Shown: positions 1 to 18,000 of the stretch, piece by piece
How positions within the stretch are numbered: the first letter of the stretch is position 1
Layout of the letters: every line of letters starts with the position of its first letter
From: Tetramitus jugosus
Lineage: Eukaryota; Protista; Heterolobosea
Assembly: GCA_937625935.1 (NCBI GenBank)
Contig: OW569386.1
Span: 1 to 64,000 of the forward strand
DNA length: 64,000 nucleotides
Reading direction: 5' to 3'
Position numbers and translations under genes: made by a program
Notes under the pieces: model-generated
What the model was told of the DNA's origin: nothing
The model's input: the letters and a program-made list of their open reading frames with translations, nothing else
Databases searched by the model: none

Positions 1-716
1 CCAAACCAAACCCAAACAAACCCAAACCCAAACCCTAACCCAAACCCAAACCCAAACCCAAACCCAAACCCAAACCCAAACCCAAACCCAAACCCAAACC
101 CAAACCCAAACCCAAACCCAAACCCAAACCCAAACCCAAACCCAAACCCAAACCCAAACCCAAACCCAAACCCAAACCCAAACCCAAACCCAAACCCAAA
201 CCCAAACCCAAACCCAAACCCAAACCCAAACCCAAACCCAAACCCAAACCCAAACCCAAACCCAAACCCAAACCCAAACCCAAACCCAAACCCAAACCCA
301 AACCCAAACCCAAACCCAAACCCAAACCCAAACCCAAACCCAAACCCAAACCCAAACCCAAACCCAAACCCAAACCCAAACCCAAACCCAAACCCAAACC
401 CAAACCCAAACCCAAACCCAAACCCAAACCCAAACCCAAACCCAAACCCAAACCCAAACCCAAACCCAAACCCAAACCCAAACCCAAACCCAAACCCAAA
501 CCCAAACCCAAACCCAAACCCAAACCCAAACCCAAACCCAAACCCAAACCCAAACCCAAACCCAAACCCAAACCCAAACCCAAACCCAAACCCAAACCCA
601 AACCCAAACCCAAACCCAAACCCAAACCCAAACCCAAACCCAAACCCAAACCCAAACCCAAACCCAAACCCAAACCCAAACCCAAACCCAAACCCAAACC
701 CAAACCCAAACCCAAA
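1..716 (+). repeat. Telomere, (CCCAAA)n = TTTGGG on G-strand, ~119 units
   Basis: Uninterrupted CCCAAA array at the window start; a few variant units (CCAAA, CCCTAA) in the first ~40 nt. Confidence 0.97.
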
Positions 717-1704
717 TTCACTTCCTTCTCAAAAATTAAAATTTGCATCCAAATTCAAAACAAAATCGATCTGTCATCTAAAATTTGATCAAACAATATC
801 TGTCTGAATTAAAATCACTCAATTCATTTCCATTTTCATCTCTTGATCCTCATTGCTTAGTCTTTATGGAAACCAGAAATCTTCTCATCAAGTGCTCAAC
901 ATTTGAAAGGATTAGAGGCAATAAAGTGTGTTAATACACGTATTGTGAGTAACAATTTCTATTCTACTTGAGTTATGACGGGTTGGGTTTGGGCATTCAA
1001 CTCTGCACTCAACAAAACACAAAATAGGACTTCTCATTCTATTAGAGTTAATATCTCTCAGAAGAAGAATTCTTTCCAAGATTTTCAGTCTAGTACATTC
1101 ATAAAACTGAATTGTCACTCACAAACGCTATAATACTCTGCATTTTTGACGGGTTGAGTCAGACATTCCAACTATAAACTTGATTCAAATTTGAAACTTC
1201 ACTATTCCACTGTCTTACAGAATTTTAAAACGAAAGGTCTCAATAATAGTTAAAAATATATGATTCTACAGTGATTATTTGATAAAAATGTCGATTCTAT
1301 CCAGAAAAACACTAAATCAAGTCAATCAAAATTTCCGAAAAACCAGGTACTCAGAAACTGAGGCAAAATATAATTGGAAGATAATCATGTTAAAAATGAT
1401 CAAATACTATCTCAATACCCTGATCCAAAACAAAGAAACCATGTTTCACTCGAATGTCTTACCTCCAGTACAGGATCAAAATCTACTGAAATCTGTTGCA
1501 GTTTTAACACTGTTGCCGTTAAAAATCTGTTACATACAGCAGATATGTCTCCTCTACGAGCTGATAAAGCTCAAATTGAGTTGAAAATCACGCCAAACTC
1601 TTCAACTCAATCAGTTGAAGCTTTTAGAGCAATAAAAAATCTCAAAAAACAACCTGCCTAAAAAGGAAACGTCTAAAAAAGCAGGTTATTTAAATACTGC
1701 GTAC

Positions 1705-1721
1705 CCCAAACCCAAACCCAA
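1705..1721 (+). repeat. Interstitial telomeric tract (~3 units)
   Basis: CCCAAACCCAAACCCAA, same orientation as the terminal telomere. Confidence 0.85.
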
Positions 1722-2106
1722 CCACAACTTCCTCTCACTCAATCATTCGCTCCATGCACCTCTGCCCTCGCTGTCAAAACTCTCATTGTAATTCTAACAA
1801 CACTCCTTCATCCATGTTGAACCTTCATCAAAGGAGTTTAAGCTCTTTCATCATTCTTTGTTACAAAATATTTCCTGCCGTGTCCTTCGTCTTTTCCTTT
1901 CCCCCACGTTTCGGTTACTGGACAATGCCATTCCCAGTCGAGAATGCATTCATCAGGCTATTGTATTCACCGACTGAGCATTACAAACAATTTATGAAGG
2001 ACTTCAATCTTGCACTTCAACCGTCTCGGTCACAATGTATCTTCCTTCAGATGTTCGAACCTTCCTGATCTTAGTTCCAAGTTCCTCTGTAGAAATCTTT
2101 TTATGC

Positions 2107-2396
2107 GGAACTATCTGGTTCCTCTTAGACATGTGTGAATTTAGGCGGAACCAGCTGGTTCCACTGAAAAAGTCGTATTACAGGCGGAACCAGATAGTTC
2201 CACTGACAAAGTCAAGTTTTAGGCGGAACCAGCTGGTTCCTCTGTAAAGTCGAAAATTTAGGCGGAACCAGATAGTTCCTCTGAAAAAAAGTTCTTTTAG
2301 GCGGAACCAGCTGGTTCCGCTTGTGAGTTCAACTTTTAGGCGGAACCAGATAGTTCCTCTGTAAAAACGCTTTTCTCGGCCGAAATGGCTGGTTCC
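2107..2396. repeat. Palindromic 39-bp unit array A (8 units)
   Basis: GGAAC-N6-GTTCC cores start at 2107, 2147, 2186, 2225, 2264, 2303, 2342 and (degenerate) 2381. Consensus TTTAGGC-GGAAC-(CAGCTG|CAGATA)-GTTCC-(T/A/G)CT-N~12. Confidence 0.95.
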
Positions 2397-2626
2397 ACCT
2401 ATTTTTTCTCGACTCATCAGTCAATAGCTCACAGAGATTTGGGTTTTCTGAGCTCAAAACCCAACTCCATATCACAGTTTGGGGGATAGTTCGGAATCTA
2501 TAGTGAGTTTTTTCACACAAAGCTTAAGTTGAACATTCCAGACCATAAAGAATACAAAAACAACCTTTACAACGTACAGTTGACTGTATTCAGCCAGTCT
2601 TGGCTAGCCGATATGTGACAACCCAA
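2182..2626 (+). repeat. Long direct repeat, copy 1 (distal array units plus ~230-bp non-array segment)
   Basis: Near-identical to ~7674-8079 apart from one extra unit. Identity stops at ...GATATGTGACAACCCAA, where this copy runs into telomeric repeats. Confidence 0.93.
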
Positions 2627-2639
2627 ACCCAAACCCAAA
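2622..2639 (+). repeat. Interstitial telomeric tract (CCCAAA)x3
   Basis: Sits exactly at the end of direct-repeat copy 1. Confidence 0.9.
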
Positions 2640-2644
2640 AAGCA

Positions 2645-2772
2645 TGGTTCCGCCTATTGAACCCAATGATTTTTAGGCGGAACCAGCTGGTTCCTCTGAA
2701 AAAAAGGCAAAACAAGCGGAACCAGATAGTTCCTCTTACAAATCCATTTTCTAAGCGGAACTAGATGGTGTC
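2645..2772. repeat. Palindromic 39-bp unit array B (half unit plus 3 units), directly 3' of the YR stop codon
   Basis: Half site TGGTTCCGCCTA at 2645; cores at 2679 (CAGCTG), 2718 (CAGATA) and 2757 (degenerate). Confidence 0.9.
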
Positions 2773-2787
2773 TCTCTGAAGAACAGT

Positions 2788-4932
2788 TTATTCGAATCTG
2801 CCATAGTCAAAGGCGAGTAGTTCTTCAATATTGAGTGTGTCTTGTTGTCCTTTCTCGTTCGTATCTTCAGTCATCATCATCTCATCTGATACGCATGGTG
2901 TACTCTCTCTGACAACATCTGGTTGAGTTACAAGTCCTTCAAATTCAGGGAGGTGTATCATGTTGAAGTTGGTTTCTGTTGTGTCCTCCTCACTGCTGTC
3001 ATCGGTAAAGGTGAGTCTTCGTTTCACACCTCTAGGATTAAATCTCTCCTCAATCGTCATTCTGTCACCAGTGGATGTGGCCGTTGTTTTGGCTTGATAA
3101 TCCTCATGGAATACTCTGTTAATGTATTCATCTGTTTGATTTCCCACTGCCAATTTCAGGAACACTTGTTTCCCAATGTTCAACAAAATGGACAATCTGA
3201 TCTCCTTACTAGCAGTTTGATATTGACTGTTGTTGTTTAGTGCTTCTCTGCATTCCTCAGCATGTTCACACCATTTTCTGATGTATTTCTGATGATACAC
3301 CATCCAAATTGTTTGATGCTTCTTTCCCTCTGATTTCTGATCCTCTTCGTCACATGCTCTTTTTAAGTTAGGTCTCAGCTGAAGAATTCTTGATTTTATG
3401 CGTCTAAAGGACACATACTTTGTTACCGAAGAGGGAGATTTCTTAGGTCTCTTCGATGATCGTCTCACTTCTCTCATCGTTGTTCTCACAGGTTGAGGCG
3501 ATGAGCTCGAAGTGCTTGTTGTGTTAAAAAAGCTTCTCACAACATTCTGTGCTTCAGTGTTTTGTTGTAGATCTTGAAGACTTGCAACATTCTGGGAACA
3601 GAAGATCGACATCCTTTCGTAAGCATCTATAGAATCATCATTATTCCATCCCACATGTCTCTTGATTGCTTGCCGAATGTTATCCTTGATGATGCCATAC
3701 CGTAAAATACTGGTCATCAGTGCTTGACAGATGTGACCACTTCTGAGTGATCTCATCGTGTAACGACAGCGAAGTTCAGTGTCAGAGCTTTGCTTCATGA
3801 GATTAGACATGTCTTTGGAAGACATTGGTGCTTCACTTGTTGATTGCGTGAATAAAAACTCTTCACTCGAACCATCTCTGTACTCAAAAGGTCCTTCAGT
3901 AATAAGGTTAAGGAGTGTGGGAGCTTTAAACACTTTTCTAATGTGGAACAGGTACCATAATAGAGCATACACTGGACATTCGTTAAAATCAGTGCTACCA
4001 TACACAGTATTGCGAAGTTCATCTCTTCCAATTCCTTTGTTCTTGTAACCAACGTTTTGAACGACAAGTATTGGTTGATCATCAACCTTGACGGAACTGA
4101 AGGTGACATCCTTCAATTTCATATATGAGAGAGTATCACCTCTCCAACCAATATGCCTTCCATACATAATGATAGCCCTGAGCTTGATCTGAGGCTCTCT
4201 GTTGTCCCTCTTTGCCAGGATTCTTTGCCATCTCTTTAAGTCATTGTTCAGCAAAGGACAGACTTTGAATTTTGAATTGCCGTACTTCCTGATTAATGAT
4301 CTGAATAACTTTCTGATGAAGTCACCCATTTCAAGTTTCAGGTCAATGTTTCTTTCTTCCTTGAGAAGAGAACACAGTTGGTTCCAAAAACAGTTAACAA
4401 CAGTACTGTGACTGTATTTGTACACTACTCTCATTTGTAGTAAGTACAGTCCCAAAACAAACTTCCCAGGTAGATAACAATCAACAGTCTCCAATTCTTT
4501 GTGTTTCTTCTTTTGTTCTTCCAGCCACCCTTTCCAGCTTCTCCAAGAATATTGTTGGATCCTTCTTGTACCAGGAGCCTGACTCAACTGCATCAAATTT
4601 ATCAGCTGTGCCATTAGGTCTGAGAGAGTCTTATCATCATTGGTGTCAACGCAGATCTCTCGGCACAAGTCTTCATCACTACCAGTCTTCTCCATTCTGA
4701 CAATTGGTTGTACTGTCAGTTCATCAGTTATTTTCTGATTCTTCAAGGTGGATGCTCTCTCTGTACCAAAGTAACAGCTGAGTTCTTTGTCCACATCTTC
4801 AAGAGTAAGGCCATCAATCTTGTCCCCTTCAACGTCTTCCAAAGAGATAAGACCACTCTGAACGAAAGGATGTGCAGGTGAAGCATCAAGTTTCTCAACT
4901 TGTTTCAAGTATTCTCTTTCAATAGATTGCAT
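2788..4932 (-). CDS. Tyrosine recombinase (Crypton/DIRS-like YR), ~714 aa; likely start MQSIERE at 4932
   Basis: Motifs in order: GWRGDTL (R), YKNKG (K), ECPV, YTMRSLRSG (x-x-R), HVGW, SIDAY (Tyr nucleophile), with a helical core-binding region upstream. The ORF-track N-terminus (5073-4987) is MULE TIR sequence. Confidence 0.88.
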   Translation of the reverse strand: MQSIEREYLKQVEKLDASPAHPFVQSGLISLEDVEGDKIDGLTLEDVDKELSCYFGTERASTLKNQKITDELTVQPIVRMEKTGSDEDLCREICVDTNDDKTLSDLMAQLINLMQLSQAPGTRRIQQYSWRSWKGWLEEQKKKHKELETVDCYLPGKFVLGLYLLQMRVVYKYSHSTVVNCFWNQLCSLLKEERNIDLKLEMGDFIRKLFRSLIRKYGNSKFKVCPLLNNDLKRWQRILAKRDNREPQIKLRAIIMYGRHIGWRGDTLSYMKLKDVTFSSVKVDDQPILVVQNVGYKNKGIGRDELRNTVYGSTDFNECPVYALLWYLFHIRKVFKAPTLLNLITEGPFEYRDGSSEEFLFTQSTSEAPMSSKDMSNLMKQSSDTELRCRYTMRSLRSGHICQALMTSILRYGIIKDNIRQAIKRHVGWNNDDSIDAYERMSIFCSQNVASLQDLQQNTEAQNVVRSFFNTTSTSSSSPQPVRTTMREVRRSSKRPKKSPSSVTKYVSFRRIKSRILQLRPNLKRACDEEDQKSEGKKHQTIWMVYHQKYIRKWCEHAEECREALNNNSQYQTASKEIRLSILLNIGKQVFLKLAVGNQTDEYINRVFHEDYQAKTTATSTGDRMTIEERFNPRGVKRRLTFTDDSSEEDTTETNFNMIHLPEFEGLVTQPDVVRESTPCVSDEMMMTEDTNEKGQQDTLNIEELLAFDYGRFE

Positions 4933-4986
4933 TGGTGTGATTGCTTTGTTTGTTTGATGTGTTTCTCTCATTTGACCGTTAAACAT

Positions 4987-5078
4987 GGGACTTGCGAAAT
5001 GTGGGAGCGGGAATCCCAGTTTTGACTGGGACTCGAAGTTCTGGGAGTCCTGAAGGGTCCTACTGAGTCCCATATTTC
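4987..5078. repeat. MULE left TIR
   Basis: Inverted match to 7360-7471; multiple CTGGGA/TCCCAG subrepeats. Confidence 0.9.
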
Positions 5079-5124
5079 AACATATGTGTATAGTAGCATA
5101 ATTGTATTGTAGTGTATATGTATT

Positions 5125-7261
5125 TTATTTACGTCCCTTTCTGGCCTGTCTCTTTGAAGTATGTACAATCATGTTGAATTGACGTGATAGACTAATCTTT
5201 GCTGAAGATGAAGGTAGAGACGTCTTCTGTCTCTTCTGAGGTACTTCATCATCGCTAGATTCACTATCTGTAATATTTCTCTTCCTCTTAGGTGATCTGG
5301 ATGACTGTGATCTTGGTGCTTGACTATCGGATGAACTACTTGCAGATGCCTTCATATCTTCAGCATTATCAACATCATTTTCATTATCAGAGGATGTATC
5401 AAGAAATTCTACTTCACTATCGCTGTGACCATCATCAACTTTCTCCATAATTTCGACATTTGATGTGCGATTACCATGATATGTCTTATCAGATCTGTCA
5501 GCTCTCTTCCTTAGATTCTTCTTCTTCTTTCCCTTCCTTGTGTTAGGGACCTTAGCTGCTTCAATGAGTTTCTCCATTGGTAAACTGAAAGGAGATTCAG
5601 CCCATTTATCAATTTGTATCTGCCATAGATTGTGTAGCTCTAGTACAGCCCAAATATGTCTGCACGTACAATACTTTTTCTTCTCATCACAATTGCACAC
5701 TACTTGTCTTTTCTCCTTTTTTACCATTATTTGAACTAGTGCAACGTGATCATCTTCCTCGTTATCCATTACACTATAGCTAGAACCACTAGCAGTAACA
5801 GGTCCATCTACAATAGATTTCTTGCTATTCAAAATCTCCAGTGTATCCTTCTTCATCTTATGTACAATGTTCGCATTCAACGTCGAGTATTCCAGAGGAT
5901 CAATGGATAAGTCCCTAAGTTCTTCATCATCTTCTTCTGCATTGCTGCAATCTCCCTCTGACATATCTGTCGTTTCCTTGAAGCGGTCAAGAAGTTCCTT
6001 TCTTATGCTTGAAATTTTATAATCCAATGCATTCTGCATTGTGACGCGAAGATGCATATATTCGTCAATCAGAACATTTGAACCAAATCCAGCTCTACTC
6101 AATATATCTCCACGTTCAGTTGAAAATAGATAGTCCATGAACTCATCTATAAACTCAGAGATAGTCTCACACTTGTCTATCATCCGTTTCACCTTCCGGT
6201 TTCCAGACTCAGACCAATTGTCGTAAAAAGGGAACGGTACAAAGGGATGTTCTCTTCGCGACAATTTGTAATTATCGATCAGTAGATTCATCTTAAAAGA
6301 GACATCTTGATGCTTCTCCCAATACTTCTTCCATTCCTCATATTTCTTCTTCGACAATAATGATTGCCAAATTCTCATTGTAGCTTCTTTCTGATCATCA
6401 TAATTTGAACTGGTGGACATCAATAAACCACCAAGATTACCTCGCTTACCATTACCCTTGATCGAAGTAATAATACTCTCTCTATCGTTCTCTTTCACTC
6501 CCAGAGCACGAAGTTTCTGACCCCAATCATCTTCTTTGTGGAACAAGCATTCAAATGTTCGAGCTTTTGGGGCAACTGTTTGAATAGCAGCTGCAAGACC
6601 TTTTCCTCCATCTCTACCAATACCAAAAGCAGTAGATAATACCTTTTGGCAGTTCATATCAATTGCCTGTAAAGCAAGAGTGAATGTAGCAGCGTCTTCA
6701 TGATCATGAATAATGAGTGCTCCAGGTCTAATTGGTGACTCTTTAAACCAATATGCACAGTACCAAATTATTGTTACAAGACAATCACACAACTCAAATG
6801 TTGATTCCATAGTGAACATGTTGCCATCAGGACATCTCTTGTTGTTGGAAAGGAGTTTGAATCACCAATCTCATTGATGGAAACATCTCACATTGAAGAG
6901 CTTGATCTCGTCCAAGAGTCATCATCTTCGTCATTAGGTCATTGTAGTCTCTCTTTTTTTTTGCATCTTTCAAACCTCGTTGTCCATCCAATTGCACTAA
7001 TCTTGATGGAGTACCTCCCTTATCCCACTTGCCACAGCGATCATATCTAATATCCCTGGTAGAATGGGAACGTCCATCCTTATTCTTCGTCGACACAAAG
7101 AAAACACTACTTTTGAACTCATCTAGATAGTTCAATGGAAGAGTACTCTTCGTGGTTGTACTCCATTTATTAATAAGTAGGTGCAAAGCATCAACATAGG
7201 ATAATGATGAAGTCTTGTCACTGAATTCAGGTAATACGTGTACTGTTGGTGAGTCTGCCAT
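5125..7261 (-). pseudogene. MULE transposase with SWIM zinc finger, split by a +1 frameshift at ~6829
   Basis: FTMESTF (first catalytic D position is E), GRDGGKGLAAAIQTVAPKARTFECLFH (second D plus CxxH), DNWSESGNRKVK (E), SWIM CNC..CTCRHIWAV. ORF 7261-6827 ends ATG TCC TGA; the +1 frame continues GAT GGC AAC ATG into ORF 6819-5125. Confidence 0.85.
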
Positions 7262-7359
7262 GTTGTTTCTTTTGATTGATTGTTGAAGTGATGGAAAATA
7301 TAAAAAAACACTTCTAACGGTTTCTTTCTGGCGCGAAACGGATCCTTCTCCTAATAGGA

Positions 7360-7471
7360 GAAATATGGGACTTCACAGGACCAGTCGGGATCCCCAGTTC
7401 CAGTATTCCCAGGAGTCCCAAAACAAAACTGGGAGAAACCAGGATTCCTGCTCCCACATTTCGGTTGACCC
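7360..7471. repeat. MULE right TIR
   Basis: Inverted match to 4987-5078 with two small insertions. Confidence 0.9.
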
Positions 7472-7485
7472 GTTAAACATTTTCC

Positions 7486-7492
7486 TTTTATA
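7486..7492 (-). promoter_or_regulatory. Candidate TATA box of the YR gene, displaced by the MULE
   Basis: TATAAAA on the minus strand. With the MULE removed it lies ~59 nt upstream of ATG 4932, ahead of a CA-rich leader like that of RPL30. Confidence 0.45.
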
Positions 7493-7560
7493 TGGTGTGT
7501 TTATAACGGTAACTTCAATAATCGTCTTGAACCGAATAGTTCTTCCTTCATATTGTTGGT

Positions 7561-7849
7561 GGAACCAGCTGGTTCCTCTAACAAATCCTACATTTAGGCG
7601 GAACCAGATAGTTCCTCTGAAAAAATGATATTTTAGGCGGAACCAGCTGGTTCCGCTTGTGAATCCAACTTTTAGGCGGAACCAGATAGTTCTACTGACA
7701 AAGTCAAGTTTTAGGCGGAACCAGTTGGTTCCTCTGTAAAGTCGAAAATTTAGGCGGAACCAGCTGGTTCCGCTTGTGAGTCCAACTTTTAGGCGGAACC
7801 AGATAGTTCCTCTGTAAAAAAGCTTTTCTGGGCCGAAATGGCTGGTTCC
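7561..7849. repeat. Palindromic 39-bp unit array C (8 units)
   Basis: Cores at 7561, 7600, 7639, 7678, 7717, 7756, 7795 and (degenerate) 7834; exact 39-bp spacing. Confidence 0.95.
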
Positions 7850-8079
7850 GCCTATTTTTTCGAGACTCATCAGTCAATAGCTCATAGAGATTTGGGTTTT
7901 CTGAGTTCAAAACCCAACTCCATATCACATTTTGGGGGATAGTTCAGAATCTATAGTGAGTTTTTCCACACAAAGCTTAAGTTGAACATTTCACACCATA
8001 AAGAATACAAAAACAACCTTTACAACGTACAGTTGACTGTATTCAGTCAGTCTTGGCTAGCCGATATGTGACAACCCAA
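7674..8079 (+). repeat. Long direct repeat, copy 2
   Basis: Matches 2182-2626 and lacks one 39-bp unit. Confidence 0.93.
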
Positions 8080-9176
8080 CTGTGACAGTTGTCTGGCTGT
8101 TGTCAATATCTGGGGAAGGAACACAGAATACACAAGTGGAGAAGAGATTTGTAGAACCATTGGCACAGCTATTGAAGAACAGGAAAAAATGATTTATGTG
8201 CGATCTGCAGGATCTGCCTCCTTCAATCGAGTTTGACATGCATCGTTGTATCTGTACCACATCCTACTACTCTTCGCATACGATAAACTTCACTTCGGTA
8301 TAAAATGATCTATACTCGTAATCTGGACTCCAATCAACTGCGTGATCGCTGTGGTGTCTAGTGTGTCATTCATTTCTTAGATCGGGTAAATACTCTGTGA
8401 AGGAGTAATAATAACTCTAAACTGGGAAGTTGCACCACCATTTTTAGCAAATCCTGGTTGCAATCTGATATTCAGAAGATTGTTTGTTGCAATACACCAT
8501 TCCTGTACCCTCCAGTTCTCATACACTCTTTGTAACACTGGAGAAGGTACTATATTAATATCGAATTCCTCCTCTGCATCCTTCATCTCATTCATATCAC
8601 CATCCTCCATTTCATGTACTTCTTTATTGTTGTCATCCGTGCACATATTATATATCTTGTTGAGGCTGCTCAAAAATTGAATGATTCAACCTTGTATGAA
8701 ACACAGCTCTTTTAGGCAAGAAAATACAACGAAGTTTTTCAATTTTATGAGAAGGAGTGTATCATAATCCTCGCAAATCCTCGCGCTTTTTTTGAAATGT
8801 AACAAATGAAGAAGAAACAACACAAGCTTGGAGAATAAAACATGGTTGACTCTATTCAGTATTATTATCGATCTCTGAAGAGAAAGAGGCCCAACTGCTT
8901 CGACTGCTGCAAAACATCAATGATGAGGTTGAAAGATACAAAGAAATGGTTCTGGAGGATGTTTTATAGATACCGACAAGGATACGTAAATGTACAGAGG
9001 AAGTATTGAATGTTCATCAAAATAAAATTCTATCCAGTTTGGTTCTGTAGATCTGCTCTTGATTCGGGATTCCGCCAAGAACTAGTCCGCAAAAAGCCCT
9101 CTGCGCACTGATGTTCATTCAAGTTGGGTTCGTTTGACATGATGCAACAAAGAGTAACACAAGGAAACGAACATCA

Positions 9177-9641
9177 ATGAGGACAGTCCAATCATTCCAC
9201 GAAATTACTCAAGATGAGATCTCTAACAACATTCCCGTCCTCATAGTGAACAAGGGTTATGGAGAACTTCAATTGGAAAACTATCACTACTCACAAGCGA
9301 TCAGAATTGGGAATCGTGTGGAAATATCTGGACAAGGCGGATATGACTATGAGTTCAACTATCCCGAAAATGCAACATTGAAGGAAGAGATTGTTCAATC
9401 TCTGAAAAATGTACAAAATGTGTTGGAAGCAGCTGGAGCCACATGGAACGATGTATTCAGTTTAACAACCTACCATGTCAACTTGAACGAAAGAGATGCC
9501 ATCTTCTTGGGTGAACAAATCAGGAGTAGAATTACTTCTCACGCCCCCTTATGGACATGTATCGGTGTTGCAAAACTGGCGGATTCAAGGATGAGAGTCG
9601 AGATTGTTGTCAGCGCCATTGCGTCTTCAAACAACAAGTAA
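9177..9641 (+). CDS. Rid (YjgF/YER057c/UK114) family protein, non-RidA subfamily
   Basis: YSQAIRIGNRVEISGQ, NVQNVLEAAGAT, PLWTCIGV..L....RVEI. Confidence 0.88.
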   Translation: MRTVQSFHEITQDEISNNIPVLIVNKGYGELQLENYHYSQAIRIGNRVEISGQGGYDYEFNYPENATLKEEIVQSLKNVQNVLEAAGATWNDVFSLTTYHVNLNERDAIFLGEQIRSRITSHAPLWTCIGVAKLADSRMRVEIVVSAIASSNNK

Positions 9642-9761: not shown

Positions 9762-11720
9762 TTATTGTTGTTGCTGTTGAAAACGTCTGAACACATCATG
9801 AACCAGCATTCTTTTCACCACATGCTCCAAGTCGTCAAACAAATCAACTTGACCAATACCCTTCATGATTCTCTTTGATTGATTTTCAACGACTTCTTTT
9901 GACAAGTTCAACTCCCAAATGGCTCCTTGCTTCAAAAACTTATTGTAAATTGAGTCCTTCATATCATTTCGCTCATTAATCTTCGAAAGTGATTTGAACT
10001 TCAACACCTCTTTCAAAAATTCCAAATTCTCAGCACAGAGACAATTATCACAATACTCCTTGAATTGGGCATAGGTTTCCGGTTGTTGCATCATTGAATC
10101 AAAGCTCATTATCATTTGTAGATCATGCAACTTCTCCTTTTCCTTGTCTAGACTCTGTATCAAAGCTTGACGGTCACTCAAATCTCGGAGCACAACAATC
10201 TTTGCGTTGATAGATTCACCTTGTGATCCCGACAAGATGCATTCACTTACACTGACGCTTACAAGTCTCTGAACGCCAGTTTTTGAAATGATCGTAGTTT
10301 CTTTACCGTTCCACCGAGCGTACACTGGAAGATTATCTTCTGTGAACTTTGTAGAATCAAGAAAAGAAGCTGGAAAGATGTCCCTTATCGTAATATTCTC
10401 CAATTCCGATTCAAAAAATTGAAACATTTTCCAAAAGGCTGAATTAACTTGCAATATTTTCCCCATTTGGTTGATTGTTAATACAGCATCCTGCATTCCA
10501 TTCATGATAGTGTGGGTCTTCTGTTCCTCTTGTGCCACTCTATCTAACAGAGATTGCAATTTACTTTTCGAATTTTCCAGTAGTTTATATTCGACATTCT
10601 GTTTCGATCGTTCATTCTCATACTGCAATCTTTTTATCAAAAGCAGTATAATGATGAATGCTATAAGTGCACCACATATAGGCATGAACAAGCCGAACCA
10701 CTTGGATGTTTTCTTATTCTTAGAGATGAACGTCGGCGTTGCAAGGTAGTAGATTCTGTACATCCTGTCTGCAACACCAATATCTTCGAACTTTGTATAC
10801 CGAGCATTGTGAATCTTGTTCATGGATTTTGATAAAATCATAGAATCAATGCTCCCTTTGAACATTGAATCATAAATCAATCTCTCATGGGTATCAGTAC
10901 TGTTCATATCAAGAACAACTACATTTACATGCATGTTTACGTTTGCCATAGCAGCTGTCATGATCTTTCCTAATTGAAACAGACCTAGCGTTGCTCCTAG
11001 AAAGTTGCCTTCACTTGTACTATTGTTGGTCGTATTGAATACAGGAGCTAAGACCATAAAAGCTGGAATTTTGATGTTATTGTTCAACGACTCAATTAAA
11101 ACCACCTTGGCACTTGCAGCTACTCTACCTTTCATGCATCTCATGATAGTGTCTCTTCTCATTGGCTCAAAACCCAGGTCAAGACCCAACACCCCAATAC
11201 TTGCTTCAAGTGGTGAGTTGAAATAGATGGGATAATACTCACTCCTTTCTGCAACCTTCACGAGATCTCCATTGTTGTTGAATTCTCTGATTTGAAAAGA
11301 GGAAAACTCTGGTGCAGCCATCCGCGCCATACTCTCGAACGAAGACAATTCATCCAGAGGAACTCGAGGGATCCACTGAAGAGACATCAAGATATCATTC
11401 TTGAGCGAATCGGACTCTTCAGTGAAACCTACAAATTCCTGAAAGGATAAATTGGGAAACACTGACATGAGGCCTTTCAGAAGCATGACCTCCCGAATCA
11501 CACCGCCCATAATTCTATTCATATTCTGTGCAAACACATTGCCCGTTGTCTTTAGCTCTCTGACTGTTGAAATCACCTCAGCTGAATGAAGACTGACGAA
11601 GAGACCAACACCCAATGCAATTGAACCCAGGAACAGCAGTGTACCAATAAAAATAATGGGCAGGTCATAGCGCCAGTTAGCGTAACTGCAACGAGGACGA
11701 ATGCTCTTTGAATGCTCCAT
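9762..11720 (-). CDS. Membrane sensor: TM-CHASE-TM-coiled coil-PAS-RGS
   Basis: CHASE (LQWIPRV, RSEYYPIYF, VLGLDL..EPMRR), PAS (AVLTINQMGKILQVNSAF), RGS (CAENLEFL..IYNKFL....ELNL..LFD..DVFRRF). Confidence 0.85.
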   Translation of the reverse strand: MEHSKSIRPRCSYANWRYDLPIIFIGTLLFLGSIALGVGLFVSLHSAEVISTVRELKTTGNVFAQNMNRIMGGVIREVMLLKGLMSVFPNLSFQEFVGFTEESDSLKNDILMSLQWIPRVPLDELSSFESMARMAAPEFSSFQIREFNNNGDLVKVAERSEYYPIYFNSPLEASIGVLGLDLGFEPMRRDTIMRCMKGRVAASAKVVLIESLNNNIKIPAFMVLAPVFNTTNNSTSEGNFLGATLGLFQLGKIMTAAMANVNMHVNVVVLDMNSTDTHERLIYDSMFKGSIDSMILSKSMNKIHNARYTKFEDIGVADRMYRIYYLATPTFISKNKKTSKWFGLFMPICGALIAFIIILLLIKRLQYENERSKQNVEYKLLENSKSKLQSLLDRVAQEEQKTHTIMNGMQDAVLTINQMGKILQVNSAFWKMFQFFESELENITIRDIFPASFLDSTKFTEDNLPVYARWNGKETTIISKTGVQRLVSVSVSECILSGSQGESINAKIVVLRDLSDRQALIQSLDKEKEKLHDLQMIMSFDSMMQQPETYAQFKEYCDNCLCAENLEFLKEVLKFKSLSKINERNDMKDSIYNKFLKQGAIWELNLSKEVVENQSKRIMKGIGQVDLFDDLEHVVKRMLVHDVFRRFQQQQQ

Positions 11721-12093
11721 CCTTAGATACACCTATTCCTATTGTTTATTTCGTATTTGTTTGCATGAACGATAGCACACTGCTGGAGAGTGTAATTGAT
11801 GAAAGTTGTGGAGTGTAGATTGAAAGATGACATTGGGATATTTGGACATTGGCCCAAAAAGGAGCGGTTCACTTTGCGGGTCCCCCAAGAGAACTTTTGC
11901 CGAAGGGAAACCGTGATATTGTGGAAAATCCCGACCATCGGATCCTGTCATTGAGTTGATTGGAATGGGACAAAATCGTGCCATTTCCTCAACAGGAGGA
12001 GATTGTAATCCCTCATAATCCTTATTGGTAGAACAGAAGCACTTCCGAGGTTTGTCTCTTGCAGAGTTCCGACATGGTTACAGGAACTTGTCA

Positions 12094-15000
12094 TCAACGA
12101 GCCCATCGACTCACGACATCGAAAATATCTTGTTTGAGGTACGGTTTGGTTATGTATGACTGCATACCACTCAAGATTGCTTCTTCTCTGAATTGTTGTC
12201 GCGCATTTGCAGACACTCCAATGATCGGGACTGGGGTAGACTTGTCTTTCTGTTCTTTTCTTCTGATTGCCTTTGTGCCTTCGAGCCCACTCATGATAGG
12301 CATTTCAATGTCCATCAATACTAGATCATAGTTTGTCTTGGCGACCATTGTTATCGCTTCCATTCCATTCGTTGCAACATCACACCGATGATCAGCCAAG
12401 TGAAGAATTTTCATTAACAACTTTGCGTTAATAGGATTGTCTTCAGCAATCAGAATTAGTTTTCCAGGCACGACAGGAGGGACTTGAATCAGTTGAGTCA
12501 ATTGTTCGAGTTGCTCATTCTCTTTAAAAGTATTAACCTCGGGGTGATCATGACTCTCGTAATATTCCCTTATCTCTTCTCGAGATGGGATCTGGAGTGT
12601 GATATAAAAGTAGAATTTAGACCCTTTGTCCTTTGATGATTCTACACCGATGGACCCTCCAAATGCCTGTACTAAGTCCTTACAAATCTTGAGGCCCAGA
12701 CCTATCCATGAACAAAGATATTAGCGAGACAAGAAAGAATGATACAATGAGTTACAATGATAATTACCTGCTCCTCCAAACTGTTTGAATGTGCCTCGTG
12801 TGGCTTGTGAAAACGGTTTGAACAATCTTTGTTGTTCCTTTTCTGTCATCCCGATACCAGAGTCTTGCACAGATGTGATGAGCGTAGTCGTATTCGGATT
12901 CTGTCCAGGTGTGCAAGAACAAGATACTATGATTGCTCCTTCATCCGAAAATTTGATGGCATTGCTGAGCAAGTTAATCAAAATTTCCTTATATCGATAT
13001 GGATCACCAGAAACAACCTTGCTCTGTAATGTGCTGGATATTTCACTAATCAGTTCAATTGATTTACCTTGAAGTTGTCCCTTAAACATTTGGGCAACTT
13101 GATCAATAACTTCAGCTGGCTCAAACAGAATACTTTGAAGTTTGATACTCTGATGTTCTATCATTGATAAGTTCAACACAGAATCCACAATATCCTTTAG
13201 ATGGTAAGCCGAAAGAGTAATTGCATTTACTCCATCTTGGAAGCTAGCATCAGTAGACTGGTTCTCCATCAATATTTCAGTGTTTCCTAGAATTGCATTG
13301 ACTGGATTGCGCAACTCATGACACAACACATCGATATATCTGATCAAATACAAGAGTGAGTAAAACATGTTCTCAAAATTCAACATTCGATGTGATCAAT
13401 ACATACTCTTCAAGCCTCTTCTTGATTCCTGCCAATTCCGAAGATAATACCCGATACTTTCTTTCACTTTCCAACAACTGAGAGAATTTGACGTTTTCCA
13501 AAAGAATTGATATTTGAGCTGCCAAGATAGATGTGATTTTGGCCTGCTGAGCACTAAATGCATTCCCCAATAGTTTTTGTTCCAAGTAGATAACTCCCTT
13601 GAAGTCATTGTGTTTAATGATGGGAGCACATAATATGGATTTAACACCATTAAAAACAACATATGGATCCTTTGCAAACAAAACGGAGGGAGACTTATCT
13701 CCCATAATTATAGTTTCTTTCGTTCTTGCAACATAGTTGATAATCGATAATGGATAGTTTGTACAAGAAGAGAGGGGCAACGCACGAAGTGAATCAATAT
13801 AAACACTCTCCACATTGCCATCTGCAACTACAAGCAGATCACCATTCGAATCAGCCAACATAAACACTCCTCGTTGCGCGCCTGAACTTTCGATCACCAA
13901 TCTCATCATATTATCTAAAAATTGATCCAAGGATAAGTCCATTGAAATATTTTTTGCTGCTTTCATTACAGTTAGAAGATCTCTGGAGTTGGTCGAATAG
14001 TCATCTCTATCATCAACTAATCCGTCTTCAAAAATATCTTTAGAACCACTGAGCAGCATGTAATCGTCAGTAGCTAAAGAATCTTTCTTAAGAATCTCAG
14101 AATAATTCCGTCTGAGTTGCTTAACCTTCATCACACTACCCCATTCACGATACAAATCAAATGCATCCTGAATATGTTTTTGTGCATAACTCATCATACC
14201 TTTCCTGAACCAAAGTTTACCCATCAATTCGTTCGCCAGAGCTTCATACTGTAGGAACTTATCTCGAAAAGCAGCAACTCTGGCTTTCTCGTAGTACATT
14301 ACAGCATCCATCTCATTCTTATTCATTAGACTGTATTCTGCTTTCAATAACAAGAGCTTATGCTCATTATTTGCAGGACACAAGACAGAAAATTTGTCAA
14401 ATAGCCGGATTGCAAAGTCAATACGATCAAGATACTTTCGCGCACTCTCAAAAGGAATTCCACTCATAAACGCGTCCATGTATCCCATAGCTGATAGAAA
14501 AATAACCTCGAATCGAGTGTAGTATCCAACCATCGAGTCAGGATAATCATCAAAAAAGCGATCAGAATAATACACTAGCTTCTCTATCGAATTATTCTCC
14601 CAATAACTGGATTGAACTTTTCCTGAATAGTATCCACCAACATTGATGTAATCATTCCGATTGTACGCAAGATATTCCTCTTCTAGAATTGGTTCAGGTA
14701 TTAAGCAATGACACCGAACTGGCATTGTCACTCCAATAGCGTAGTGGTAGATAAAGTCATTAATTTTGTGAATATAGGGCATATTTCTTTCGTATAGCCT
14801 TTGAATCTCGTCCAACTTGACTCCTCTGAAGTATCGATAGTTAATCATATGATGTGCGGCATAACTAGAATATGAGAAATCTCCATATTGTATTGCGAGA
14901 TCCATGCAAGAATCTAGATATGGAATTGCTTGTTCAAGGTGCTGAGTGTAATGAGAGCTTGTGCCAAAGGTAAAATATGCCCTACATTTCTGTGATTCAT

Positions 15001-18000
15001 TCGGATAAATGTCTAAACATTTCAAGCCTAGTAACCCAAAGTCAACAGACTGCTTTTCTCTTCCGGGAATATCAGCACACACCAAAAAATTGATATAGGC
15101 AATGACAGAATGCGAACAATTTCCATGCTTTAACGTGAAATTGCACGCTCTGGCACATGTCAAACATAAGAGCTCTCCATTTTGGAATCCAAGACAATAA
15201 ACAGGAGTGTATAACCAAACTAAGAGACGAAATATTAACAGATGATTTGGATCTTTCATCTCTGGTGCATCGATAAAGTCGGCAATACTTCTATTGCTGA
15301 TATTCCTATCCACTTCTTCTAACTCATCTAGCAATGCTTGATGAACGCCTTCAACTGTATCGGGAAAGTAAATCCCAAAGTAAGACAAGCAATCGGTGAG
15401 AACCCTATATGCATCTGCGTATCTCTGTTGAACTTCGTATTGGTTGACTTTAATGATGTTTACGCCAATCTTATCGTTCACACTCACACATTTCTCTATA
15501 ATTGCATCATATAATTTCTCGGCTTCTTCGAAATTTCTTCGTAAGTATTCACTTTCAACGAGTTGTTCGTTCAGCTTCAACATTAATTGGTAATAGGATG
15601 TCCAAGCATCTTCTGGCAACAGCTTCATTCCGCAACTGGCAAAATCAAAAGCAGGATCATAAGCAGAACACTCCTTTGCTCTTTGACTCGCTCTCAGGAA
15701 CAACTCAGCAATCTTAGCTCTCTCGTCCATATCAACCAATAAATCTATTGCAATCTTGAAGTGGTTCAATATGTCAAAAAGTGCCTCTTCTTGTTGATGT
15801 TGTGTTAGTTTCTCTAATAGAAGTCTTCCAATAAATAAGTGAACATTATTTCTTTCAGACTCACGAACAAGTTCGTATGCTGCTTGTTGTACTCGATCAT
15901 GAAGAAAAGAGAACTGAATATTCTGATTTGCATCTAGATCAGCCAATAAAGCAGCCGGCGAGGTCTCATCTCCAAATTGTAGAACTAAACCATCTTTAAC
16001 AGCAGGCCACAGTTCAAGTGCCGTACTTGAAAAAGATTTTTGAAAAGCAACTGAGAGAATATCAAGATCAAATTTGCTTCCAATACTGGCAGCCAATGAG
16101 AGGATTCTTTGAGTACCTGGTTCTAATTTTTGAATTCTTTGTCGCATCATCTCAACAACATTGTCTGTCAAGTTTCTCTGATACAGCTCATTCATGTTCC
16201 ATTTCCACTGACCATCAACATTATCGAACTTAATTAATCCATCGTGTGAAAGATTCGTCAAGAACATGACAACAAAGAATGGATTCCCAGAAGTCTTGTG
16301 TAACACTAACTGAGCCAGCTCCCGGCAATGTTCAACACTCTTGTTGAATGTGTCAGCGATTAACTGATTGACATGACACAATGTTAATGGCTGAAGTGCT
16401 ATTTTCTTCGCATTCTTTTTCTTCTCTAACCGTTTCATGGATAAGGCGAGTGGGTGAGTGTTTCCAACTTCATTGTCTCTGTATGCACAAATGATTAAAA
16501 GATATTGAGTATCTCCAGCAAGAATATCCTCCAATAGATCTAGTGTGGAGATGTCTGCCCACTGCAAATCATCTAGAAATATCGAGAGTGGATGAGCTTT
16601 GCTCGAGAACACACCTATAAAATCACTCATGATTCTCTTGAACCGATTTTCATTTTCACTTGGACCTAGCTCAGCCACTGGAGGTTGAGGCCCAATAATC
16701 AACTCAACATCCGGTATCACGTCTGTGATCACCTTGCCGCTCAACGACAACATTTTCTGCAGACTGGAGCGCCAATATTGAATCTGTTCATCTGATTCTG
16801 TCAGAATGATGGCAATTAATTGCTTGAACGCCTGAATAAGAGAAAAATAGGGAATGTTTCGCTTGAACTGATCAAACTTGCCAGAGATAAAGTAACCCTT
16901 GTCTCGCATCAGTGGTTTTTGTACCTCGTTGATTAGACTAGTTTTGCCTAGACCTGAAAACCCCGAAACGTATAGAATATTGCTTTGCACTGCCCCAGTT
17001 GTAACTTCTTCAAATGTTTCTAACAAGACCGAAATATCCTTCTCCCGTCCATAGAGTTTCTGCGATATCCGAAATGTGCTATACACGTCATGCTCACAAA
17101 TCTCAAACTCGTCCACCTTGTCATGAGTCCGCAAAGAATCAAGACATCTCTGTAGATCCATCTTAATACCAAAGCAGGATTGATACCGATTCTCTGCACT
17201 CTTTGCGAGCATTTTCATAATAATTTGAGAAATTACAAGTGGTATCGATGAATCCACCTCATGTGGTAACATGGGAGTTTTTGCTATGTGACTATAAATT
17301 AATTTGGAGTGATCGTTGTTCTCAAATGGCAATTTGCCAGTGATCATCTGATAGAACACGACACCCAAGCTGTAAAAATCAGTGCGGTAGTCCAAATCTC
17401 TGTGAAGACCTGTTTGCTCTGGTGAGATGTATTCCAGGCAATCCGTAAAGTTCTTGATATTGATCACTGGTTGATACTGCTTGTTCAGCATGGAGGACAA
17501 CCCAAAATCCGTAAACTTTATCTCTCCTGTTATATCATTGTAGAGCAAGTGCTTTGGTGTGATGTTTTGATGTATCACTCCGGATCGATGAATGGTCGCC
17601 AGTCCCTCGATAATGGAGATGGCAATGGTTAAAAACTCATCCAATCCATATTTCTGAACAAAAAGGAAAGAAAAGTTAATCACACATTAGTAAACGAACA
17701 AATGATTCAACCAACAAAAGAAAGTAAGCAAAAAGCTCTTCACGTACTGTTTTGTCAGTGCGCAAGGGTGTGCCATGCGAGTCTTCTAAGATTAACGCTT
17801 GTCGTTTGCCACTGCCATACCGTCTCAACTCAAAGCATTGAACAACATTGCTGTTCCCCATCAAATGTTGGGCCACTTCGAATTCCCTTCGAATCTTGTG
17901 TTTCATTTTTGAGCTGAGTGAATCTGATCTGAACAGTTTGATGATCACAGTGCACTCTCTTGCACAACTGTATGCCCTATACACGATGGATCGTTTCGTC

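Follow-up and report, generated by a model that had tools for sequence, protein, structure and literature searches.

A telomere-adjacent tyrosine recombinase gene and its palindrome arrays in Tetramitus jugosus: a possible Crypton-like element of telomere repeats

The first 64,000 nucleotides of contig OW569386.1 of the heterolobosean Tetramitus jugosus (assembly GCA_937625935.1), hereafter the window, begin at a chromosome end and carry, about 2 kb from the (TTTGGG)n telomere, a lone tyrosine recombinase (YR) gene with tandem arrays of palindromic units on either side. The initial annotation of this locus took the arrays to be the substrates of the recombinase, and the question raised is whether the enzyme acts upon these units, upon some other site, or has no part in the structure of this chromosome end. 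The evidence reported here favours, with about even chances of being right, a reading in which the segment 2639-8079, called element A, is an autonomous Crypton-like transposon inserting into TTTGGG repeats, accompanied by non-autonomous partners and using the arrays as recombinase-loading sites. TTTGGG was reported as a candidate telomere repeat of the heterolobosean Naegleria gruberi (PMC3622300).

From the interior to the tip, single-copy DNA is followed by one telomere hexamer, element A, three hexamers, a second module (module B), a further telomere tract, a third block (block C) and the telomere; beyond 8079 the DNA is at single-copy depth. In the same direction, element A consists of a tail, eight array units, the YR gene, and three units plus a half-site, and is interrupted between the eight units and the gene by a MULE transposon, without which it measures 2,947 bp. 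The MULE (4987-7471) has 28-bp inner terminal inverted repeats (TIRs) at 89% identity and a 9-bp target duplication, and the MULE-free joint is present in three of the four runs examined. Its own TIRs, the duplication and the empty site identify it as a separate insertion, in agreement with the initial annotation. Its open reading frame (ORF) is split in two (5125-6819 and 6827-7261, with a break near 6820-6830), and the transposase gives a weak match to the Pfam MULE model (E 0.063). The insertion lies ~50 bp upstream of the likely YR start codon, and this copy of element A is likely disabled by it at the 5' end. Near-identical copies of the MULE, carrying indels, were also seen in run X4.

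The YR gene is one uninterrupted minus-strand ORF (2788-4986), whose first ATG falls inside the MULE target duplication; the open frame reaches 5073, into the MULE end. Start methionines of homologous proteins align near M19 (window 4932), which is the likely start codon. An N-terminal extension encoded by the 5' array, where skipping the MULE leaves 131 upstream codons without a stop, was considered and rejected, because the same frame contains one stop in each of the other two arrays and the starts of homologues align at M19. The protein is made up of an acidic N-terminus, a YR core (residues ~126-490), a conserved helical domain (~525-630) and an acidic tail. Pfam provided no match for it, nor for any of the six family members at E<=10, the C-terminal GCR1_C domain of CryptonF included, and searches of PHROGs and of PDB sequences returned nothing meaningful. 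A structural model of the domain (residues 125-490, pLDDT 56) matches Cre by Foldseek (E 4.8e-5) and yields 17 PDB matches at E<=0.001, with low TM values (~0.28); fold comparison gives integrase N-terminal and topoisomerase IB/Cre matches (Z 4.3-5.5). Atlas similarity to YR clusters is 0.94-0.95, the neighbours being NDC10_II, DUF3504 and phage-integrase clusters, plus diatom and oomycete clusters. Taken together, the Foldseek, Z-score and Atlas matches indicate a fold with core-binding and catalytic YR domains. The full-length model is poor (pLDDT 44.7, best Foldseek E 0.019), and no match at E<=0.001 was found in the viral fold library, where many top rows are integrases. For the helical domain at ~525-630, which is conserved among homologues, the model is confident; the domain has no Atlas match, and gives weak matches to RNase III-like bundles (Z<=5.5). 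Candidate catalytic residues are R282, K315, R412 (at the His position), R415, W447 and Y456, invariant in all six full-length members. The set R-(K)-H-R-(H/W)-Y is present with Arg replacing His, and by this motif-based assignment the enzyme is catalytically complete. The proposal of a lone YR close to the telomere is thus borne out by its Cre-like fold, catalytic set and position, as is the absence of reverse transcriptase (RT), no RT ORF having been found in the element.

The two large arrays are parts of one 521-bp direct repeat (2107-2626 and 7561-8079, 88% identical), composed of an array and a ~225-bp tail. The left copy, part of module B, and the YR element have an 18-bp telomere tract between them, and the left large array belongs to a different module from the YR element. 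The statement that arrays flank the gene holds in that units occur on both sides of the ORF, but the left eight-unit array is that of module B. An LTR-like (long terminal repeat-like) or split-direct-repeat arrangement was also considered and rejected, since self-comparison shows a single direct repeat, of 521 bp, whose second copy is an independent module. The tails of A and B are identical at 217 of 227 positions, so that YR-bearing and YR-less modules have the same 5' terminus.

Copy number and joints were evaluated on contigs of four public runs, X1, X4 and X5 among them, with summed contig depth as a rough measure. In run X1 the tail-end unitig has a depth of 897, versus 47-58 in single-copy unitigs (~17-fold), while the YR is present in ~3-4 copies, namely one form at single-copy depth and three rearranged forms (two deletions and one inversion) at 34-39. 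The only full-length YR copy in X1 at >=85% identity is apparently the MULE-bearing one. Comparison of the two copy numbers reveals that most arrays have no adjoining YR gene. Arrays occurring independently of YR genes had been named in the initial annotation as grounds for doubting it; such independence is seen for most copies of the module, while the YR keeps an array of its own.

Among the matches listed (16 of 37), all seven tail-side loose ends fall at 2626-2641, after at least one ACCCAA unit, and the flanks behind the tail terminus differ between contigs. One of these flanks is the window's own flank at 8080, found in the independent run X4, and another matches block C at 1314-1331. In further contigs, a telomere tract is joined to truncated block C, to module B, to the YR ORF (at 4135) or to array units. 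This pattern of junctions indicates that chromosome ends are stacks of modules which are sharp on the proximal side and ragged on the distal side. What marks the mobile boundary is the telomere tract; the nearest unit is ~225 bp away, and crossover inside units could not have created such a boundary. At the inner end of element A the tract is reduced to the single hexamer 8074-8079, which leaves little for homologous recombination and is a candidate terminal direct repeat and crossover core.

A telomere-tract boundary with a single hexamer fits the crossover described for Cryptons, in which a short motif at the terminus recombines with a target that matches it. The terminal direct repeats of Cryptons measure 4-6 bp (PMC3212892), CryptonF recombines CACCG with CAYCG targets (PMC9977147), and the same model is found in PMC13465315; YRs of nimaviruses insert into (TAACC)n telomere repeats (PMC10871703). 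Under the Crypton-like reading, the YR would release a circular form of the element through crossover at a 5-6-bp telomere motif, and the circle would re-integrate into another telomere, 1-4 repeats away from its base. Modules made of tail and array but lacking the YR, such as B, would be mobilised in trans, and distal parts would break later and be healed by telomerase, giving rise to stacks of truncated modules. The deleted and inverted copies, the set of homologues and the invariant catalytic columns all point to the behaviour of a transposon family.

The part played by the arrays was addressed from the structure of their units. Nineteen units are arranged in three arrays around the YR ORF, with cores starting at 2107-2381 (eight units), 2679-2757 (three) and 7561-7834 (eight) and a spacing of 39 bp, with one instance of 40; the number and spacing of the units, and the single uninterrupted ORF, agree with what was first reported. 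Sixteen sites lie within one mismatch of two core variants, while none was found in each of 20 shuffles. Arms of ~12 bp around a 6-bp core had been described, and the consensus unit does pair at 9 of 12 arm positions; across units, however, pairing is >=84% at six positions alone (4-8 and 10 from the unit centre), being 47-68% at positions 13-16 and <=32% at positions 9, 11 and 12. The core is CAGCTG, fully symmetric, in seven of the 19 units, CAGATA in seven and different in the other five, and neighbouring units have unlike cores. Over the 15 canonical units, leaving out four degenerate terminal ones, 11 of 14 columns of the inner arm are invariant, versus 2 of 19 in the outer arm and linker; as the units have common ancestry, this contrast is to be read as a pattern and not as a p-value. 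The 3' array of element A is single-copy (depth at 2716-2830, run X1) and diverged, and is therefore not merely the array of the neighbouring module.

Conservation of the inner arms at a fixed period is as expected of a protein-binding array. A recombinase-binding role of the arrays is predicted from the diverged 3' array belonging to the YR element itself, the arm-centred conservation and the fixed period. With a period of 39 bp, recombinase dimers could be packed end to end; possible functions of the arrays are those of an accessory or synaptic scaffold, or of an autoregulatory operator lying immediately 5' of the gene. A pattern of two units had no matches in metagenome and viral contigs.

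A different use of the same units, as lox/dif-like crossover sites of the YR, through which circles enter and leave resident arrays or chromosome ends are swapped, with aborted core cuts healed by telomerase, is quite improbable. It draws on the inverted arms around a 6-bp core and on the order tail-array-YR-array-tract-tail-array, also expected from integration of a circle into a resident array. It is kept alive by three telomere-to-array junctions, at 2266, 7799 and the window's own 2640, all within ~3 nt of the left edge of a core (a junction row at 2681 has the same depth as the 2266 contig and was taken as the same contig). The same edge of the core, however, carries GGTT, whose microhomology to the telomere repeat might draw healing to this place, and the junctions are only three. 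The diversity of flanks at the tail end cannot come from crossover in the units, and these have no single asymmetric core common to partner sites, since neighbouring cores differ and the symmetric ones give no direction. Their reliably paired arms are ~6 bp long, versus the canonical 11-13 (PMC3212892). Active sites in direct repeat should lead to collapse of the arrays, yet eight units survive in each of the two large ones; together with the unlike and symmetric cores, this disfavours efficient crossover inside them. For these reasons, and given the remote boundaries and the excess of YR-less copies, the original idea that the arrays are the main substrates driving spread is not supported. 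A combined scheme of a new class of minimal telomere-resident YR transposons, in which the YR coats lox-like arrays, integrates circles into telomeres and also cuts the cores, with breaks healed by telomerase providing new landing sites, is unlikely; if true, one 3-kb element family would drive the turnover of most chromosome ends in this protist lineage.

Several observations weigh against the Crypton-like reading. Block C has tract-bounded junctions too, at higher depth (X1 bin depth 1230-2520 versus ~50 for single copy, i.e. 25-50x, with joints at 1723), and has no sequence in common with tail or arrays, so that a route of module addition independent of the YR may exist. The distal end of module B is longer or different in runs X4 and X5 (loose ends before 1724), and the 3' end of element A, known from a single copy, could be a break that was healed; terminal direct repeats are thus not established as a feature of the element. 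Inverted arms across the predicted circle junction were searched by eye and none was seen, and the association of arrays and YR is known from this organism alone. A coverage hole in run X4 (2639-3192) was not counted as evidence.

The behaviour of block C speaks for a passive subtelomere. In such a case the block of tail and array would be spread by breakage, telomerase healing, recombination or copying primed by telomere tracts, or an RT encoded elsewhere, in a MoTeR-like manner; the arrays would bind a host factor, and the YR would be an unrelated Crypton landed in an array. Yeast Y' elements undergo such recombination or copying between ends, with short telomere tracts as the priming sites. 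YR genes are far fewer than arrays, and the cores contain words which we take to be E-box-like and GATA-like, both counted in favour of this explanation. MoTeRs, in addition, give the same picture of sharp proximal and truncated, capped distal ends without any YR (10.1101/845669). Against it stand the single-hexamer junction at 8074-8079, the separate, diverged array abutting the YR stop codon, the YR-site geometry of the units and two homologues, described below, which also run into telomere tracts; moreover, a rough look for motifs revealed no RT motif within a long ORF at 700-9000. Should the passive explanation, rather unlikely on balance, be the right one, what is left is a divergent YR family not described before, together with a minisatellite of the subtelomere.

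Homologues of the YR were identified as five full-length proteins, 59-64% identical overall (YR core, 69-78%; tail, 22-36%), and 15 shorter ones, of which 13 are fragments. All lie on contigs of 0.7-10.4 kb, and many are frameshifted fragments. In two of the five full-length proteins the reading frame continues into telomere repeats, TTTGGG being translated as GWVWVW. These features support the view of a YR family that is multi-copy, decaying and telomere-associated. A related locus was not confirmed for any of the pattern matches found in viral contigs (75), JGI metagenomes (299) and prokaryote genomes (123), and phage tblastn gave no match.

The strong conservation of the YR core could alternatively reflect a domesticated telomere enzyme, either resolving fused ends in the manner of a protelomerase or forming an Ndc10-like scaffold on the arrays. 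The symmetric 16-bp palindromes and the presence of Ndc10 and QRICH1 among the weak fold neighbours agree with this, but the chromosome end has ordinary telomerase-type repeats, the only full-length copy in X1 apparently bears the MULE, the others being deleted or inverted, and many homologues are broken. In addition, domestication of Crypton YRs has been accompanied by loss of the catalytic site (PMC3212892), which the present YR keeps. Domestication is accordingly considered very improbable.

The features of the chromosome end are collected in Table 1.

Table 1. Features of the chromosome end, in window coordinates; the strand is given where it applies
Feature	Coordinates	Strand	Basis
Telomere, (TTTGGG)n, ~120 units	1-716	minus	Repeat count; plus strand reads as CCCAAA units
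Block C, high-copy subtelomeric module without array or tail	717-1703		X1 bin depth, blastn among blocks
Interstitial telomere tract, boundary of modules C and B	1704-1723	minus	
Module B-specific sequence (~380 bp), without YR remnant (tblastn negative)	1724-2106		
Module B array, 8 units, 39-bp period; core of first unit inverted, last unit degenerate	2107-2396		
Module B tail, sharp end at GTGACA, 95.6% identity to element A tail	2397-2620		
Interstitial telomere tract of 3 x ACCCAA, where the 5' junction of B meets the 3' junction of A	2621-2638	minus	
Element A 3' array, half-site and 3 diverged units, abutting the YR stop codon	2642-2783		
Tyrosine recombinase ORF, 732 aa if translated from the ATG within the duplication	2788-4986	minus	
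MULE DNA transposon, between the YR start and its upstream region	4987-7471	minus	
MULE target duplication (9 bp), second copy; first copy at 4978-4986	7472-7480		
Element A 5' array of 8 units, with ~80 bp between it and the downstream MULE insertion point	7561-7849		
Element A tail, its 5' terminus	7850-8073		
Lone telomere hexamer (TTGGGT on the minus strand), joint of element A and single-copy chromosome	8074-8079	minus	Also in run X4

Other sequence features were noticed at the modules and their ends. Block C is ~1 kb long, looks non-coding and is bordered by telomere repeats on either side; a second family of non-autonomous elements inserting into telomeres is one possibility. Within the tail, inverted telomere-like 9-mers are separated by an 8-bp spacer (2436-2467 and 7889-7920), forming a palindrome which is a candidate for a second recombination-site-like or telomere-protein-binding sequence. 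At 8066-8092 the 7-mer TGTGACA is found on either side of the single-hexamer junction, and the flank opens with a 15-bp palindrome; a target preference or the remnant of an earlier copy is possible. A 1,355-bp contig of run X4 has in common with the window only the terminal ~50 bp of the tail (2557-2604), and is unrelated beyond it, possibly representing another non-autonomous family which keeps the terminus only. In all three modules (717-730, 1724-1740 and 2642-2656) GGAA(G/C) is found on the minus strand a few bases before the distal telomere tract; its resemblance to the array arm was noticed post hoc and may be due to chance.

Just inside the subtelomere lies a gene of the RidA/L-PSP family (9177-9641; Pfam PF01042, E 1.7e-21), and at 9762-17686 a CHASE-PAS-RGS gene stands beside a large kinase-AAA-GAF-histidine kinase-receiver gene, the second identified by reading, in a bacterial-style signalling cluster. 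By motif reading, the window also contains a gene of the C6-finger type, a family dominant in Naegleria (PMC3537659). An Rfam scan gave four matches, every one far under the gathering score, and a sigma-70 promoter scan, with a model not suited to a eukaryote, remained at chance level.

The interest of the locus depends on the reading adopted. If the Crypton-like one is true, a 3-kb single-gene DNA element recombining at a telomere hexamer would be the simplest system of this kind, the comparators for telomere targeting being a retrotransposon (MoTeR) and giant viruses (nimaviruses). The Crypton model of excision and integration could then be put directly to the test, the target being defined; the YR would be a candidate for a sequence-specific integrase acting at a repeated locus where insertion does no harm, and the architecture of these chromosome ends as module stacks would be explained. 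The accessible parts of Crypton accounts describe no internal recombinase-binding sites, for which the arrays are an explicit candidate.

The literature searched, with Repbase and most subscription journals outside its scope, contained no compact telomere-targeting YR element and no array-bearing Crypton, and neither is mentioned in the accessible part of PMC3212892. Several known systems nevertheless share single traits with this locus. Protelomerase systems, by contrast, have hairpin ends made at a palindromic site, where ~120 telomerase-type hexamers are found here. DIRS, Ngaro and VIPER elements also use a YR, and long direct repeats seemingly flank the ORF as in those elements; here, however, no RT/RNase H ORF lies between the ends, what looks like the second 'repeat' is a high-copy module of its own, on the far side of a telomere tract, and self-comparison shows neither an ITR+ICR arrangement nor split direct repeats. 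Cre/loxP and Xer/dif share the fold, Cre being the best match, and inverted arms around a 6-bp core, but differ from the eight-unit tandem arrays with alternating cores, seven of 19 symmetric, and reliably paired arms of ~6 bp.

MoTeR1 and MoTeR2 of Magnaporthe (10.1101/845669) are two related elements inserted 1-5 repeats from the telomere base, with sharp proximal and truncated distal ends and stacks parted by telomere tracts; they are retrotransposons, whereas the YR is the only transposition enzyme of element A, which, apart from the separate MULE, has neither RT nor DDE transposase. Nimaviruses (Majanivirus, Pemonivirus; PMC10871703) show YR-associated insertion into host telomere repeats, possibly with episomes or concatemers, but their viral genomes measure 278-401 kb and carry a distinct, arm-binding YR family, unlike a 3-kb single-gene element without viral genes. 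Cryptons (CryptonF, S and A; PMC3212892) have the YR as sole gene, no RT and no TIRs, and a short terminal direct repeat matching the target, for which TTGGGT at both ends, the 3' one seen once, is a candidate here. The present element differs in that this candidate repeat is a telomere hexamer, in its long subterminal arrays of 39-bp palindromes, and in its protein, which has no Pfam Crypton-associated domain, Arg for the catalytic His, and a helical C-terminal domain; its likeness to Cryptons rests on Atlas similarity and element architecture. By analogy with these systems, element A would combine the mode of action of a Crypton with the target preference seen in nimaviruses and a footprint resembling that of MoTeRs.

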